Origin: a virus
Taxonomy: Duplodnaviria; Caudoviricetes
Length of the DNA: 64,000 nucleotides
IMG/VR virus record: IMGVR_UViG_3300037424_000224
Location: 10,662 to 74,661 of that record
Strand: one strand, 5' to 3'
A program made the translations under genes and the position numbers. The number at the start of each line of letters is the position of its first letter. The stretch's first letter is position 1. A model generated the notes under the pieces. It had not been told where the DNA came from. It saw nothing but the letters and a program-made list of their open reading frames with translations, and ran no database searches. Shown one piece after another: positions 2,294 to 24,010 of the stretch.

Positions 2294-4076
2294 TCGGCAC
2301 AGTTTTAATCATAGATTCTCCGGCTCTAATCATACAATCTCGTACAATTTCTTCACCTCGTTCGGCAAATTCTTCTGGTACTTGACAAACTATTTCATCA
2401 TGAACTGCTATAATAATATTACCACCGACCTCTTTAAGTGCATCATAAAGATATACTTTAGCCAGCTTTGTCATATCAGCACTTGTACCTTGAATGGCAT
2501 GGTTGGCTCCCTCACGTTTAATTGAAGATAAAATCTGTTCAAAATCTTGATTACCAAAACTTGGTGTAGTAAAGTAGCGTCTACGTCCTAAAATAGTGGT
2601 CGCGTAACCATTAATTACTGCTTCGTTTCCTAATTCCTTTAGTTTAGCAGTTAAGATTGGATAGGCTGCATGAAAACCTTCTACAATAGTCCTGGCTTCT
2701 TTCATACTTACTTGAAACTTAGAAACTAAATTACTTGGGCCACTTCCATACAAACTTGCAAAATTAATATTTTTTGAAATTGTTCGCTCTCTACTATCTT
2801 TAGTAACTTCGTCATAGGGAATATGAAATACTTTAGAAGCTGTTAGTTTGTGCATATCCTTACCAGTTCTATAAGCTTCCAAGAATTCTGGTTCTTGACT
2901 CAGTTCAGTAGCAATTCTTAATTCTACTTGACTATAATCTGATTTAATTAATACACAATGTGGGTCTGCTATAAAAGCTAATCTATAATTAATATCTACA
3001 GATGGGTCTTTTGCTGGGTTGGGACATTGCTGAAGATTGGGTTGTTCACAGGATTCTCTGCCTGTGGCGGCTCCGATTTGATTAAATCCAGCATGAATCT
3101 TACCATCTTTTTGTACATAATCATCTATATAAGACTGACCAAAAGCACTTAATCTCTTACTTAATTTTCTATTTTTAAGAAGTGCCTCCACAACTGGGTG
3201 ATGAATATTAGATAAAGCCTCTGAGCCTGTACTATCTACTTTAATACCAAAAGTATTAAGCATTACTAAAACTTGCTGAATACTGTTTAGATTAATTTCA
3301 GTAGCCTCTATCTTTTCAATTACTGAAATTCCTTTCTTTTTACGGGGTACATCTAAAGTTCCGGCAGTAGATAACATTTCTCGTAGTTCTTTTTCCGCTT
3401 GTTTTTGACGTTTATTAGTAAGATCGTAGATTTTCATCCAGAGTTTCTGGTCAAATCCTACTCCTAATAATTCCATCTCTGCTAGAATTCTTACTAAAGG
3501 AAACTCTATATTGTACGCAATATTGGCTACGTCTTTCTTGATTAACTGTTCATAGATAAGTGGATAGAGTTTAAGTAGATAAATTACGTCATCTGCCGCA
3601 TAGTTTAGTTGTTGGTCAGTAAAGAATACAATTTCTTCTTGGAACTGATTTCTAATCTCTTTTACTAGATTTACATTCAGGTACTTAAAGGTTAAGTCAT
3701 TTAGAGAAGACATAATCTTACCAATTCCAGCAGTTAATAAGGATTCTGCTATCATGGTATCAAATACATATTCTGGAAGCCATCCATAGTTCTTTTTTAG
3801 AAACTTAATATCAAATTTTCCATTATGAAATAACCATCTAATATGTGAACTCAATCTGCTAAAAAACTCAGTCATGTCCAAAGCTCTAGCATCATAAATG
3901 TAAACTAAATCCTCAGATACGCCAATTTGTACTAAAAGTAATTGATTTTCAAGTGCATTTAGTCCATTAGTTTCAACATCTAATGCCATTACTTCTTTAA
4001 ATGGTTCAAAAGACTCTCTGTTGATTATTTCGAGTGACTTCCACATTTCTTCTTCAGTTGTTATATAATGCCACAC
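2253..4076 (-). CDS. polA: DNA polymerase family A (3'-5' exonuclease + polymerase, no 5' nuclease domain)
   Basis: Exo I ALDVET, HNGKFD, YAADD; motif A DYSQVELR, motif B SKNINFASLYG, motif C VHDEIV. Confidence 0.97.
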   Translation of the reverse strand: MWHYITTEEEMWKSLEIINRESFEPFKEVMALDVETNGLNALENQLLLVQIGVSEDLVYIYDARALDMTEFFSRLSSHIRWLFHNGKFDIKFLKKNYGWLPEYVFDTMIAESLLTAGIGKIMSSLNDLTFKYLNVNLVKEIRNQFQEEIVFFTDQQLNYAADDVIYLLKLYPLIYEQLIKKDVANIAYNIEFPLVRILAEMELLGVGFDQKLWMKIYDLTNKRQKQAEKELREMLSTAGTLDVPRKKKGISVIEKIEATEINLNSIQQVLVMLNTFGIKVDSTGSEALSNIHHPVVEALLKNRKLSKRLSAFGQSYIDDYVQKDGKIHAGFNQIGAATGRESCEQPNLQQCPNPAKDPSVDINYRLAFIADPHCVLIKSDYSQVELRIATELSQEPEFLEAYRTGKDMHKLTASKVFHIPYDEVTKDSRERTISKNINFASLYGSGPSNLVSKFQVSMKEARTIVEGFHAAYPILTAKLKELGNEAVINGYATTILGRRRYFTTPSFGNQDFEQILSSIKREGANHAIQGTSADMTKLAKVYLYDALKEVGGNIIIAVHDEIVCQVPEEFAERGEEIVRDCMIRAGESMIKTVPIEVDVLCGKSWGG

Positions 4077-4441
4077 TATTTATTTCTACTTTCTTTAAAC
4101 TTATTGATTGCGTATCTCCAAGCTTTATCTGCTTGTTCATTATCTGGCTGTTGTAATAATACATCTTCAAATTTGGATAGTATAGTTAGAGGTAATGCTT
4201 CTACGTCTCCCATAAAAACGCATCCCCACTTACCAGAAAACATTACATGGTTACAAACATTATCGCTTTCAAAATATACAGCACACATACGTTTATAAGT
4301 ACCAGAATAATAAGCACATAAATCTGTCGGAATCATTATAATGCTAACAGGAGAAAATGTGGTATTACAAACATGACAAGTAATCATATCAGTGGGTTGT
4401 CTATATGCCACACCAGTTTCTAACTCAAAAATACTATTCAC
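4076..4441 (-). CDS. Hypothetical protein
   Basis: Abuts the polA start; operon-like packing. Confidence 0.55.
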   Translation of the reverse strand: MNSIFELETGVAYRQPTDMITCHVCNTTFSPVSIIMIPTDLCAYYSGTYKRMCAVYFESDNVCNHVMFSGKWGCVFMGDVEALPLTILSKFEDVLLQQPDNEQADKAWRYAINKFKESRNK

Positions 4442-4517
4442 TTAATTCCTTTCTGGATATTAATAAAGTAATCCATTTACTGAATATCCTTGCCCGATAA
4501 TCCATAATTAGTCTCTA

Positions 4518-4718
4518 TTAAATACATTTAATTTTCCTATATAATTTATAAATATAAAGTCTATAATTGTTTTCTTTATACTCACTACTATTTTTAATGT
4601 CCTTAATAAATTCTTTAAAATAATCCTTACAATCCTTTATAAGATAAAATTCATCTGATTCTATATAGTATTCATTATTATTACTTATTTCCACTATTGT
4701 AGCAATATATTTATACAT
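4518..4718 (-). CDS. Hypothetical protein
   Basis: Start overlaps the stop of the upstream gene. Confidence 0.5.
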   Translation of the reverse strand: MYKYIATIVEISNNNEYYIESDEFYLIKDCKDYFKEFIKDIKNSSEYKENNYRLYIYKLYRKIKCI

Positions 4719-9375: not shown

Positions 9376-9451
9376 TCCGGTGTCGTTCAATTGGACTAGG
9401 ACAAATGACTCTGACTCATTAAATTTGGAGGTTCAAACCCTTCCACCGGAG
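9376..9451 (+). tRNA. tRNA-Gln(CTG)
   Basis: Acceptor TCCGGTG/CACCGGA, anticodon arm AATGA-CTCTGAC-TCATT, GGTTCAAACC T-loop. Confidence 0.9.
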
Positions 9452-9454
9452 CTT

Positions 9455-9537
9455 GGGCAAGTGACGTAATGGTAGACGTGCTACGCTTAGACCGTAGTGA
9501 CCGAAAGGTCGTAGAGGTTCAAGTCCTCTCTAGCCCA
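9455..9537 (+). tRNA. tRNA-Leu(TAG)
   Basis: Anticodon arm CTACG-CTTAGAC-CGTAG, long variable arm GACC-GAAA-GGTC, T arm AGAGG-TTCAAGT-CCTCT. Confidence 0.92.
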
Positions 9538-9541
9538 CTAT

Positions 9542-10003
9542 ATGAAAAAAATAATTTTTATATTTATAGTATTGACGTTTATGTTTCCAACAGTTGTATT
9601 AGCAAAGGAAGCGGATATTGATGTTAAGTTACCTAAGTGGGCGACCCCTGAATGTATACTTACTATTTACAGGATAGTCCAGCATGAAACTGGCAACATG
9701 AAATCTGATGAGGTATTTAGTTTCATGACAACTCAAATAGTACATGACATACACAGATTGGGCTGTAAAAACTTAACTCAGTGGCGATGGTCTATTGGAT
9801 ATTATCCAGAGTCTAAAGTATCTAATCAAGTTAGACTAGCAGTATTAAAAACAATTTTATATCCGCAAGACTTTCCTATTTGCAACTTTATAGGAAATAT
9901 GCACGACAGAATAGTGTGGAAATCTTATGGTTATGATGTTACTATAGGATATAGTAAAACAATAAATTCATTAACGGTGGTAGGTGTAGGATGCAAACAT
10001 TAA
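9542..10003 (+). CDS. Secreted protein with signal peptide, possibly SleB/cell-wall-hydrolase-like
   Basis: MKKIIFIFIVLTFMFPTVVLA signal peptide; YRIVQHETG loosely resembles the SleB catalytic helix. Confidence 0.45.
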   Translation: MKKIIFIFIVLTFMFPTVVLAKEADIDVKLPKWATPECILTIYRIVQHETGNMKSDEVFSFMTTQIVHDIHRLGCKNLTQWRWSIGYYPESKVSNQVRLAVLKTILYPQDFPICNFIGNMHDRIVWKSYGYDVTIGYSKTINSLTVVGVGCKH

Positions 10004-10149
10004 AACTAAATAAAATAAATAGAGCATTTATTTCCGCTCTATTGGCATTGGTACTTTTATTACCAGTGTTTGCCTCATGTGTCGAAAGCGACCCACAACA
10101 GGGTATGCCTGGTCATATGGTATCTCCAAATATTACTTTAGGCAAGTAA
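9991..10149 (+). CDS. Small predicted lipoprotein, 52 aa (not in ORF track)
   Basis: MQTLKLNKINRAFISALLALVLLLPVFAS-C-VESDPQQG: basic N-terminus, hydrophobic core, lipobox-like FAS|C. Confidence 0.5.
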   Translation: MQTLKLNKINRAFISALLALVLLLPVFASCVESDPQQGMPGHMVSPNITLGK

Positions 10150-10165
10150 TTTGATAATTTAATTT

Positions 10166-10220
10166 AGACTACGCTCAGCAAACATACAAAAATTTTATTG
10201 GAAAATTAAAAACGTAGTCT
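10166..10220 (+). ncRNA. Candidate structured ncRNA, CAGCAA family copy 1
   Basis: AGACTACG CT CAGCAA ACATACAAA AATTT-TATTGGA-AAATT AAAAA CGTAGTCT; same architecture as 3 other copies. Confidence 0.7.
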
Positions 10221-10278
10221 GTATTCGCTCTTATAGTATAGTGATATTATAATTGATTTGTAATCTATAGACGTAGGT

Positions 10279-10899
10279 TTGATTCCTACTGAGAGCTTAG
10301 AGGTAAGTATGGATAAAGAGCTAAGACATAGTAAACATTCTTGGTACGAGTGTCCAGAATGTGCTAGAAAATGGTTACAAAAGTTTCCTCAAGATACATT
10401 ACTTTATATGGAATATCTTGAAGATGAAATAAATACATTAATAGAGACTATATGGAAGTTAAAAACAGATGCCAAAAATAATTCAAGGTAATCAAGTATA
10501 TGAATGTAAATTCTGCTCTAAACGGTTTAAAGACCTATTAGATGCTAGAAATTGTGAAGCAACACATGATATAGTCTATGTCCCATTTGAGAGACAGGAT
10601 TTAAAGCGATTGACTTTATTCATTAACACTGGTGAGGTTGAAGTTTTGACCAATAGTCTGCTTAATACAATTATGAAGTATAATGGCTTAAAGCAAGAAT
10701 GATATGTGCTAACCCTAAATGTCTCAAAGAGATACAGGTAACAGCGAGCTATCGAATACTGGCTTTTGACCGACCATATATTAATTTGTACTTTCATGTA
10801 GATTGTGTAGTAGATGAAGAAGAATCTTTTGAAATAATAAGGAATTTAAGTAAAAATGAAGGTAAAAGTAATAAACGAAACTGGGTACATAGAAAGTGA
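10279..10899 (+). CDS. Three small Zn-finger-type hypothetical ORFs (10279-10491, 10469-10702, 10699-10899)
   Basis: CPEC; YECKFC...CEATH; CANPKC...HVDC; overlapping junctions. Confidence 0.55.
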
Positions 10900-21422: not shown

Positions 21423-22352
21423 ATGGAAAATAAAGAAATTACTCAAGAATTTAAAGATGCTTATTCGGCAGTAGCCAAAGATAAGAGTCAGAGAGATGCT
21501 TTTTCTGAACTAATTGTCAAATGGATTCAGCCAAATCACCTAAGTTCAAATCTAGTTAGCCTATTCCTAAATACTCGCAGTATAAAATCTGGCGATGCTA
21601 TGGTCTACAAAGTTCGTAGAGGAATGGAAGTTCGTAAGTTAGTACCTGGTACTATCCCACTACAGAGTGAAGTTGCTGTAAACGATAGAATCAATTACGC
21701 CGTCGAGTTCGCTCAGGTCGGCCTAACCTATAATCTTTGGGAACTAGAATCCGGTGAAATCGGTACTCTAGGTGAACTACAGAATGAAATGCGAGCAAAA
21801 CTATCTGATTACTATGTTAATCGGGTATTTACGGCTCTTTCGACAATTTGGAGTACCGTAAATACTCCTACTAACTACACCAATGTTGGTGGTACAGTTA
21901 CTGCTACAGCCCTCAAGAACGCTATTGATAACATCAATCTAAAGGTCGGTCGTGTTCGTGCAGTAGTTGGTACTCGTAAGGCGTTGACTCCCATCACCAC
22001 TTTTGGTGCTGGTTGGGATACAACTACAGCCGCAGGTACAACTCAGCAAGCCAATTACCCAGCTCTAAACGAGATTTGGCAAACTGGCTGGCTAGGTCGT
22101 TACTATGGTGCACCAATTGTTGCACTAGACCAGATTTATGATAATCCTATCGACTACAGAGCCATGCTCCCAGAAGATAAGATTCTTGTAATTGGTGAAA
22201 ATGTTGGTGAGTTCCTAATGTACGGGGATGTCAAGTCTCAAAACTATGACAGAATGGATGTAATTCCACCTCAGTATATGTTAAACATTTTTCAATCTTT
22301 TGGCTTAGTAGTTACTAATGCCCAAGGTATACATATCTTAAAAGTTAGTTAG
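21423..22352 (+). CDS. Major capsid protein (unspliced form; exon 1 ends at 22290, spliced exon 2 = 23387-23448)
   Basis: AAGGTGA RBS then ATG 21423; about 310 aa; head-module position; C-terminus duplicated across the intron. Confidence 0.85.
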   Translation: MENKEITQEFKDAYSAVAKDKSQRDAFSELIVKWIQPNHLSSNLVSLFLNTRSIKSGDAMVYKVRRGMEVRKLVPGTIPLQSEVAVNDRINYAVEFAQVGLTYNLWELESGEIGTLGELQNEMRAKLSDYYVNRVFTALSTIWSTVNTPTNYTNVGGTVTATALKNAIDNINLKVGRVRAVVGTRKALTPITTFGAGWDTTTAAGTTQQANYPALNEIWQTGWLGRYYGAPIVALDQIYDNPIDYRAMLPEDKILVIGENVGEFLMYGDVKSQNYDRMDVIPPQYMLNIFQSFGLVVTNAQGIHILKVS

Positions 22353-23386
22353 AAATGAAGAAACTTTTTTCAGAAGAGGATGATTTGCTACTGAAAAAAT
22401 TCTATGCAGAAAAAACAAATAAAGAACTAGTTGAATTACTAAACGGACAGTTTTCCAGAGACCAAATCAAATGGAGAGCAAAAAGTCTAAAATTAAGTAA
22501 ACTTCCTGAAACAAACTTAAAATCACAACAGACTAGAAATACTTGTTGGAAAGAGTGGGAAGTAGAAATAGTTAAAAGACACTATCCAAATGAAGGTTAC
22601 TTGGGATGTTTAAAATATCTACCCAATAGAACTGAACAACAAATTACATACAAAGCACAGCGATTACATATAAAAGTTTCTGAGGAACGCCGTTTACAAG
22701 TACAGTCCACTTATTACGGCGTGGCTAAACATACAGAAGAAACTAAACAAAAGATGTCACTAGCACGTCTTGGTAAGCCATTTACACAAGAACATATTGA
22801 TAACTTAAGAAAGTCCTGTAAGCGGGGTATAGAACATCCCAATTATAAACATGGGCAATCAAAGAATCAGTATCCAGATGTTTTTAATATTCCTTTAAAA
22901 GCAAAGATACAAAAACGTGACCATTATCAGTGCCAAGTATGTAAAAAGAAGCCCTCTTGGGGCAAATTAGTAATTCACCATATAGATCATAATAAAGAAA
23001 ATTGCATAGAAACTAACTTAATTACTTTGTGTCGGTCTTGTCATGGAAAGTATCATAGTCCATACAATAGAGACCAGTTAAAGCAACAACAAGACTTTAA
23101 CGACATTATTAGCGGTCAAAAGAAGAATGTAATAGATGGTAACATCTATTTAGCAACAGACCAAATTGCTGGAAACTCTGGGGATATTCAATTAGTTACC
23201 GAAATCAGTAATGATATACGGCAATCTGAAAATATTGAATTGCAGACAATCAGCAGCCAAGTATCCTGAAGGGATAAAGGTTCAACGACTAGAGGGTTTG
23301 CTCCTATTTATAGGATGATAGTATAGTCTGGTCTTATTAGCGATAATAAGAGTTGGAAGATAACCGACTTCCAGAGTAACAGCAAG
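22291..23386 (+). mobile_element. Group I (IA-like) intron in major capsid gene
   Basis: P AAATTGCTGGAAA, Q AATCAGCAGCC, R GTTCAACGACTA, S GTATAGTCT. P1: exon ACATTT (22285-90) with GAATGT (23125-30), U.G at the splice site. P2 AATAGATG-GTAA-CATCTATT. Omega G at 23386. Confidence 0.85.
22355..23269 (+). CDS. Intron-encoded HNH homing endonuclease with NUMOD3 and helical DNA-binding repeats
   Basis: HTEETKQKMS (NUMOD3), CQVC...IHHIDHNKENCIETNLITLCRSCH; ORF reads into the ribozyme core. Confidence 0.88.
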   Translation: MKKLFSEEDDLLLKKFYAEKTNKELVELLNGQFSRDQIKWRAKSLKLSKLPETNLKSQQTRNTCWKEWEVEIVKRHYPNEGYLGCLKYLPNRTEQQITYKAQRLHIKVSEERRLQVQSTYYGVAKHTEETKQKMSLARLGKPFTQEHIDNLRKSCKRGIEHPNYKHGQSKNQYPDVFNIPLKAKIQKRDHYQCQVCKKKPSWGKLVIHHIDHNKENCIETNLITLCRSCHGKYHSPYNRDQLKQQQDFNDIISGQKKNVIDGNIYLATDQIAGNSGDIQLVTEISNDIRQSENIELQTISSQVS

Positions 23387-23448
23387 ATCAACAGTTCGGT
23401 CTTATTGTAACAAACGCGCAGGGAATTCACGTCTTAAAGGTTAGCTAA
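23387..23448 (+). CDS. Major capsid protein exon 2 (T|AT CAA CAG...: YQQFGLIVTNAQGIHVLKVS*)
   Basis: In-frame continuation after splicing 22290|23387. Confidence 0.8.
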
Positions 23449-23468
23449 TTTCCCTTTTGGGAGTATTA

Positions 23469-23505
23469 TAAGGGAGAGTTACTAAAATGACTCTCCCTTA
23501 TTTTG
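23469..23505 (+). terminator. Rho-independent terminator after capsid locus
   Basis: TAAGGGAGAGTTA-CTAAAA-TGACTCTCCCTTA then TTTTG. Confidence 0.8.
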
Positions 23506-23524
23506 TATAAGGATAGGTAAGGAT

Positions 23525-24010
23525 ATGGAAAATAACATGAATCAAATAGCGTCACTTATGTCTAAAGAACCATATAAACGCTATATTAAAGCAACACTAG
23601 GCAGAGTAGTAGTTAAGATTCTAGACCCGATCACAGGACAGCAGGTAGAAGTAGTTCTATCAGGCGATCCTAAACTAAAGGAAGAATCTTGTATTTTAGA
23701 TTTGTGGACTTCTACTGAGCAAACTTATTTTGAAAGAAATAATAAACAGATTTTAGGGGAAGGACTTTTGGTAGATTTTAAAGAGTCTATTGAAGCAGTT
23801 CCTACTGCAAATAATGTTACTGATACTCAGATTGTAGACGCCCTGACAGGTAAGTTTTTCCAAGTAAAGAAACTACTTGATGGCTTCACTAGCACAGCTC
23901 CCGTAGAAAGAATGCTTACTCTAGCAGAAGAAATGAATCGACCAGTTAAGACTATTGATGCAATCAAAGGTAAACTAGCAGAACTTCAAATTTCAGAATA
24001 CGAAAAGTAA
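23525..24010 (+). CDS. Hypothetical head-module protein
   Basis: Strong RBS; morphogenesis context. Confidence 0.6.
   Translation: MENNMNQIASLMSKEPYKRYIKATLGRVVVKILDPITGQQVEVVLSGDPKLKEESCILDLWTSTEQTYFERNNKQILGEGLLVDFKESIEAVPTANNVTDTQIVDALTGKFFQVKKLLDGFTSTAPVERMLTLAEEMNRPVKTIDAIKGKLAELQISEYEK

Follow-up and report, generated by a model that had tools for sequence, protein, structure and literature searches.

We analyzed a 64,000-nucleotide (nt) window of DNA from a virus of the Caudoviricetes, positions 10,662 to 74,661 of a 74.7-kb IMG/VR viral contig (IMGVR_UViG_3300037424_000224), in which the gene for the major capsid protein (MCP) is interrupted close to its 3' end by a group I intron. 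Positions are those of the window and its features lie on the + strand. Exon 1 (21423-22290) ends with the T of a tyrosine codon. The intron (22291-23386, 1096 nt), whose bounds are set by the P1 helix, the terminal omega-G and the restoration of a conserved Tyr codon, separates exon 1 from exon 2 (23387-23448), which completes the Tyr codon with its first two bases, continues for 19 more codons to a TAA stop, and encodes the orthodox C terminus of the protein family. The first 62 nt of the intron stay in the frame of exon 1 and encode a 20-residue look-alike of exon 2 followed by a stop. This spare copy (22290-22352, 20 in-frame codons and TAG) is hereafter called A, and exon 2 is called B. 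After A come a predicted HNH homing endonuclease open reading frame (ORF) of 304 aa (22355-23269), which lies between the two strands of P1, and the catalytic core of the ribozyme. Read without splicing, the capsid ORF extends from 21423 to 22352 and encodes 309 aa, with its TAG stop at 22350-22352 and a C terminus of the form F-Q-S.... The predicted splice, 22290|23387 (last base of exon 1 and first base of exon 2), joins T22290 to A23387, which gives TAT (Tyr) and a C terminus of the form Y-Q-Q... that ends at 23448. A first-pass annotation of the stretch, made from its letters alone, had given the same two endings at 22352 and 23448, and we found both of them there.

Sequence searches of Pfam and of the PDB left the capsid protein unnamed, and its identity came from a fold search. 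The protein belongs to a family of 600 homologues of about 300 aa each (Pfam PF27364, 'YonB'). A Foldseek search with an AlphaFold model made from 54 homologues (predicted template modeling score, pTM, 0.64) gives hundreds of matches to phage capsid and encapsulin chains at a probability of 1.00, and as judged from this model ORF 21423-22352 is an HK97-fold MCP. In the model the C-terminal 20 residues make up the final beta-strands, with predicted local distance difference test (pLDDT) values of 80-86.

By its core, its P1 and guide sequence, its omega-G and its frame-restoring splice, the element is a group I intron, with self-splicing predicted. The core matches Rfam family RF00028 at 23097-23350 (56.5 bits, gathering score 50, E 3.6e-13), the sole group I match in an Rfam scan of the window. 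P1 consists of six pairs between ACATTT, the last 6 nt of exon 1 (22285-22290), and the internal guide sequence GAATGT (23125-23130), with a U.G pair at T22290, after which the 5' splice site lies. Nine further pairs make up a P1 extension between 22296-22304 and 23115-23123; the 5' strand of this extension is inside codons 3-5 of A, which places that part of the spare copy under a dual RNA and protein constraint. P2 is a hairpin at 23131-23150 (23131-23138 with 23143-23150) with a GUAA loop of the GNRA type, and 6 of its 8 pairs show compensatory changes in the RNAalifold consensus. The remaining helices are P3 (23157-23162 with 23294-23300), P4 (23167-23172 with 23250-23255), P5 (23178-23180 with 23243-23245), P5a (23186-23192 with 23234-23240), P6 (23256-23258 with 23279-23281), P7 (23287-23291 with 23324-23328), P8 (about 23302-23315), P9 (23333-23350) and the P9.1 hairpin (23353-23374), and the omega-G is the last nucleotide of the intron, 23386. 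The first-pass annotation had described P1, its extension, the GNRA loop and the position of the HNH ORF in L1, and had thought that the intron appears competent. The structural elements are all as described, and the appearance of competence is borne out by an RF00028 match above the gathering score, a covarying core and an invariant omega-G. In the Rfam alignment the partner of the guide sequence is a local ACAUU (23102-23106) instead of the exon. We treat this pairing as coincidental because it is within the conserved C-terminal coding part of the HNH ORF and is not kept in all lineages. The local ACAUU (within 23102-23130) might compete with P1.

The same layout, consisting of exon 1, an in-frame spare copy with stop, the HNH ORF where there is one, the core and exon 2, is present in at least eight diverged lineages. 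The lineages were found through HNH homologues and through pattern scans with conserved core motifs, and all of the relatives are metagenomic contigs from different samples, designated here by L numbers: besides the window, the lineages are L019/L024, L020, L021, L025/L026, L023/L022/L032, L065 and L088. The intron of L065 is only 338 nt long and has no ORF, yet still keeps the spare copy, and in that of L088 (575 nt) a short HNH-like remnant is all that is left of the ORF. The intron of L019 (1705 nt) possesses, besides the HNH in L1, a LAGLIDADG ORF (3949-4542) between P7 and the 3' strand of P3.

A 6-nt guide lies about 38 nt before the J3/4-P4 motif in every lineage, and in 8/8 it is fully complementary, with a terminal U.G pair, to the end of its own exon 1. 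The helices themselves differ between lineages: exon-1 end and guide are ACATTT and GAATGT in the window, AAGCAT and GTGCTT in L019, AACTAT and GTAGTT in L020 and L021, GCCTAT and GTAGGC in L025, AACTCT and GGAGTT in L023, AGTTGT and GCAACT in L065, and AGCTGT and GCAGCT in L088. The P1 extension covaries as well, with compensatory changes between codons 3-6 of A and the bases just 5' of the guide. A seven-lineage alignment of the core, made without L019, whose core is interrupted by the LAGLIDADG ORF, has compensatory changes at 28 of 55 consensus pairs, in P2, P5, P5a, P6, P8, P9 and P9.1; P3 covaries by inspection of the alignment (A2). The omega-G is invariant, and the splice restores the conserved Tyr codon of the family, in all eight lineages.

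The capsid loci alone were positive when 68 viral contigs with the same core type were screened for a protein-level repeat across the intron. Three other screen matches were rejected: that of L087 (2900-4200) is due to repeated intron RNA structure, tandem group I introns with near-identical peripheral hairpins, and those of L051 and L059 to search windows overlapping themselves. The P7-P9 motif is also found in LAGLIDADG group I introns of rRNA-like genes (L027-L031 and L033-L035, with one Candidatus Saccharibacteria metagenome-assembled genome), and the core of the capsid intron therefore belongs to a widespread subtype.

The first-pass annotation had proposed a search for intronless relatives, and these exist. 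All 119 that were listed end in the exon-2 motif, Y (W in a few) and then QQ, followed by a small hydrophobic stretch; the Tyr and both Gln residues are at least 90% conserved in the family alignment (A1). The closest relative, L003 (82% aa identity), is itself intronless, and its capsid gene, terminator hairpin and next gene are arranged in the order seen in the window. The motif of the intronless relatives and the gene order of L003 indicate that exon 2 is the resident end of the gene, and that the insertion consists of the intron and its spare copy. On a hidden Markov model (HMM) of the intronless relatives B scores better than A in 8/8 lineages, by 2.3-14 bits (6.5 bits in the window). The first-pass annotation had reckoned with a dead intron, rescued by the duplication, if there were no splicing and exon 2 were decaying in relatives; the better family fit of B in all eight lineages argues that exon 2 is not decaying.

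In the window A and B share 16/20 residues, 3 codons and 39/60 nt, the residue and codon counts agreeing with those given earlier. The first-pass annotation had concluded from them that both copies look protein-selected and long diverged, and the comparison across lineages leads to the same view. Over codons 7-20, which were used because they are outside the P1 extension, the proportion of synonymous differences (pS) between A and its own B in six lineages is 0.82, which is saturated, and the proportion of nonsynonymous differences (pN) is 0.10, a pN/pS ratio of about 0.12; between lineages pN is 0.32 for either copy. A matches its own B in codon number and stop position in every lineage, at 20, 21 or 23 codons. 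In the six lineages tested A is nearest to its own B (13-17/20 residues), and pairing each A with its own B is the best of all 720 permutations of the assignment. A partial exception is L065, where by inspection A is nearer to the copies of L088 than to its own exon 2. The deviations of A from the consensus cluster in codons 1-6, where the Tyr is changed to Phe, the second Gln is replaced and a Gly is sometimes replaced; these are the codons that double as the start of the intron and as a strand of the P1 extension. The sequence comparison indicates that both endings are under purifying selection.

The different codon choice of the two copies is probably nothing special. Where A and B have the same residue, identical codons number 51, and host codon usage would predict 59.6 (z -1.7). 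This marginal deficit is not significant, and on this ground we make no claim of active recoding in the sense of selection for dissimilar codons. Over exon 1 the window and L003 are already near synonymous saturation (pS 0.61, pN 0.11). With codon identity close to random and the closest relative near saturation, the recoding is explained by ordinary divergence or by a copy imported from a related phage. The two endings have diverged like two phages of one clade, with which an old in situ duplication and an import from a related phage both fit, and the saturation of synonymous sites everywhere makes the donor of A untraceable. That A tracks its own B could be due to structural constraints from exon 1, to occasional conversion or to homing only between near relatives.

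The ORF in L1 is a predicted HNH homing endonuclease by its motif and its sporadic distribution, and a DNA cleavage activity is likewise predicted. Residues 193-235 match PF01844 (25.4 bits, cut-off 21.4), and NUMOD3 and many PHROG HNH families match as well. The ATG of the ORF is 2 nt after the stop of the spare copy in the window and 1-13 nt after it across the lineages, and three lineages have the HNH stop immediately 3' of the guide. The 3' tail of the window's ORF reads through P1' and P2-P6. HNH homologues (40-51% identity) in five other lineages lie directly after full-length-looking capsid ORFs on other contigs. In a quick tree of exon 1, made without L021, which has only 26 exon-1 codons, the intron-containing capsid genes are nested among intronless ones, and well-supported branches force at least four gains or losses. 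HNH identity between lineages (42-69%) runs parallel to that of the capsid protein (44-68%), and this parallel divergence suggests that the association is old and that the intron homed among close relatives and was often lost, instead of passing freely from clade to clade.

A second, unrelated group I intron has arrived at a similar design in the same capsid family. Among 80 further relatives examined, L116/L119, L156 and L145 have a different intron five codons downstream of the window's insertion site, in phase 0 after the conserved Gly and with a different core (L116 3344-4152, L156 3350-4245, L145 3377-3715). It carries a Zn-ribbon HNH in L116/L119 and L156, and is ORF-less in L145. It too opens with an in-frame copy of the remaining codons, here 16-17, of which 11-13 residues are identical with a pS of 0.66-1.10, and its P1 covaries (TACGGT with GCCGTA, TTCGGT with GCCGAA). 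The spare-copy design is thus present in two unrelated introns 13 nt apart in one gene family. In L123 (3408-end) the same Zn-ribbon HNH follows the capsid stop, and the contig stops short of any core or second copy. The capsid genes of L023 (- strand, about 3594-4554) and L088 (- strand, upstream of 7750) are split again near residues 60-110, and the upstream gap in the L023 gene contains a LAGLIDADG-like ORF. The capsid family looks like an intron hotspot.

An intrinsic-terminator-like hairpin with a T-run (23468-23510, + strand) is found after exon 2 in the window and none is found after the spare copy; the sole terminator-like site on the + strand lies 3' of exon 2. Upstream of the capsid gene, ORFs of 509, 316 and 187 aa follow a portal-scaffold order by position only, and were left unnamed by family searches. 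Rfam detects three tRNA genes at 9376-10297. We found no close GenBank phage relative by DNA or protein, the best being Clostridium phage Amboise at 21% identity.

It is likely that the element represents a conserved but sporadic group I intron, mobile or formerly mobile, that has an HNH gene in L1, sits 20 codons before the end of the capsid gene and encodes a stand-in C terminus, and full-length capsid protein can probably be made with or without splicing. From the sequences we infer splicing in vivo, the presence of both proteins in virions, translational coupling, the activity of the HNH and the selective rationale. A ribosome that reaches the 5' splice site of an unspliced RNA would complete a capsid protein ending in A. 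It would terminate 2 nt before the HNH start, where re-initiation is possible. The HNH frame overlaps the P1 extension and the guide as well as part of the core, and because of this overlap translation and ribozyme folding would be mutually exclusive on one transcript. Ribosomes on exon 1, A and the HNH ORF would occupy both strands of P1 and its extension, so that there would be no splicing, yet capsid protein and endonuclease would be produced. A transcript that folds would instead splice at 22290|23387 to give the orthodox protein ending in B. The spare copy would remove the cost of incomplete splicing in the most abundant phage protein and would avoid truncated, possibly poisonous subunits, and with that cost removed the intron could persist. 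Two further suggestions of the first-pass annotation, that the insertion is fitness-neutral and that the recoding guards against re-cutting by the endonuclease, are only possible.

A wider proposal, about which we are tentative and which we regard as somewhat less probable than its opposite, is that being 'splicing-optional' is a general and evolutionarily stable means by which selfish group I introns survive in capsid genes: the intron would compensate its host with a working replacement for the displaced exon, and both isoforms would be made and assembled, their ratio set by the competition between translation and folding. The two unrelated introns that have the same design in one gene family speak for this proposal.

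Several observations weigh against the stand-in intron as we have described it. A has Phe for Tyr and Ser for Gln at two positions that hardly vary in the family, and it scores 2-14 bits below B, and its product may be a poorer subunit. P10 is weak or absent, inspection of exon 2 and the guide region having shown no convincing helix. The HNH frame of the window is 46 codons longer than those of its relatives and runs across P2-P6, an overrun that could hamper ribozyme folding in this phage. No RNA runs carrying 22100-23600 are listed. Finally, the conservation of the layout speaks for selection in the lineage rather than for activity in the window genome.

The least unlikely of the alternatives draws on a resemblance to the mitochondria of fungi, which the first-pass annotation had noted for endonuclease ORFs that duplicate 3' ends and which is apt (PMC3630166). 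Fungal mobile ORFs (mORFs) insert together with a foreign C terminus for the host gene, and the native one is left downstream (PMC3630166). Examples are the 'gene hybrids' of atp6, atp9, cox2 and nad3 in Glomus sp., with 63.5% nt but 91% aa identity, and atp6-ORF360 of Allomyces macrogynus (PMC3630166). The phage layout is like the fungal one in having an in-frame stand-in for the C terminus, an endonuclease ORF right after it and the native C terminus downstream, and in the low nt and high aa identity between the two ends. It differs in that exon 1 and the native end would be joined by a covarying group I ribozyme, for which these fungal cases have no counterpart, and in that both ends are conserved and the native one is positioned for joining, whereas the fungal one is usually untranscribed or a remnant. 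The phage stand-in is also part of P1, and no foreign origin is evident for it. Among the six lineages tested each A is nearest to its own exon 2, and L065 is a partial exception outside this result. The Allomyces macrogynus atp6-ORF360 was reportedly described by Paquin et al. in 1994.

On the fungal pattern, the capsid locus could be a replacement cassette with a relic intron, in which A and the HNH, as a mobile unit, took over the end of the gene, so that in the window phage the unspliced protein alone matters and the ribozyme and exon 2 go unused. The shared layout and the similar gap between identities (about 63% nt and about 91% aa in the 'gene hybrids'; PMC3630166) would fit, as would the weak P10 and the HNH frame that overruns the ribozyme core up to P6. 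We nevertheless consider this explanation unlikely. The guide tracks the end of exon 1 in eight lineages, the core covaries, and exon 2 is everywhere nearer to the family consensus than A; in the window itself P1, the P1 extension, the omega-G and the core are intact. The fungal native ends, in contrast, are untranscribed remnants with no ribozyme to join them.

Still less probable, in our estimation, is that the spliced protein alone is functional and that A serves to park or terminate ribosomes near the HNH start, for coupling and for protection of P1, its likeness to exon 2 being a legacy of duplication or import. An early in-frame stop is common in phage group I introns, the junctions between stop and start are tight (1-13 nt), and A is off-consensus at conserved positions, all of which would suit such a role. 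A mere parking site is, however, hard to reconcile with a pN of 0.10 against a pS of 0.82, with the exact length of A and with the lineage-specific residues it shares with its own exon 2 although the capsid proteins are only 44-68% identical. The ORF-less intron of L065 has no HNH to couple to, and the copy is still kept. As for the duplication being an assembly or chimera artefact, which the first-pass annotation also thought unlikely, the contig does come from a single metagenomic assembly, but an independent assembly spans the stretch without difference, the layout is common to eight lineages from unrelated samples, and copies that differ at 21/60 nt are no collapsed or misjoined repeat, all of which make an artefact extremely improbable. 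That independent assembly is a Logan contig that covers 21900-23700 with zero differences and may come from the source sample; four DNA sequencing runs also confirmed the assembly and contained fragments of relatives.

The preferred reading, a splicing-competent intron with a stand-in C terminus, can be compared with other introns that have some of its features. In Tremella fuciformis the 5' ends of mitochondrial introns encode an analogue of the next exon, with 72-81% similarity (Deng et al. 2020, PMC7315562). Tremella nad4-i2 was confirmed as a real intron by cDNA, but most of the predicted cases were unspliced (PMC7315562). The common feature is an intron whose 5' end copies the following exon. 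Unlike the phage case, the Tremella genes are organellar and the copies were read as a route for gene-fragment exchange, not as splicing-optional expression, and neither an RNA-structure role of the copy nor deep lineage conservation was described. Closer in gene context is the capsid intron of mycobacteriophage LittleE, which splits its gene so that the protein can be made from spliced RNA alone; 'presumably splicing is extremely efficient' there (PMC3706429). Lactococcus phage Tuc2009, cited in the same source, is another phage with a splicing-dependent capsid group I intron (PMC3706429). Both resemble the window in that a group I intron, sometimes with a homing endonuclease, resides in a highly expressed HK97-type capsid gene, and both differ from it in that the unspliced RNA described here also encodes a full-length protein.

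A possible route to the present arrangement is offered by the psbA intron of cyanophage S-PM2, where the endonuclease F-CphI, the product of a free-standing gene, reportedly takes part in collaborative homing, and such genes can invade introns, as described by Zeng, Bonocora and Shub in 2009. By such a route, an endonuclease gene just after a stop codon could merge with an ORF-less intron near the 3' end of the gene. A spare exon copy is not known to have been described in S-PM2, and we offer an origin by an S-PM2-like merger as a hypothesis. Our literature search found no paper describing the spare-exon intron layout in phages. We regard as new the layout in eight lineages, the covarying P1 and extension, the selection on the spare copy, and the second unrelated intron with a spare copy.

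The usual view is that a mobile intron is tolerated only where it splices efficiently. Bacterial mRNAs are translated while they are transcribed, and this translation competes with the folding of a ribozyme. If our interpretation is correct, a stand-in exon uncouples the fitness of the host from the efficiency of splicing, which would explain how an intron can persist in the most heavily expressed gene of a phage. The P1 extension, whose 5' strand is inside A, would in addition be one of the rare cases in which an RNA segment is selected both as a ribozyme helix and as protein. Because gene callers take the unspliced ORF for a complete capsid protein, introns of this type are invisible in annotations, and the C termini of capsid proteins in databases may be the spare version. 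The eight-lineage alignment would provide a ready system for studying the competition between translation and splicing.

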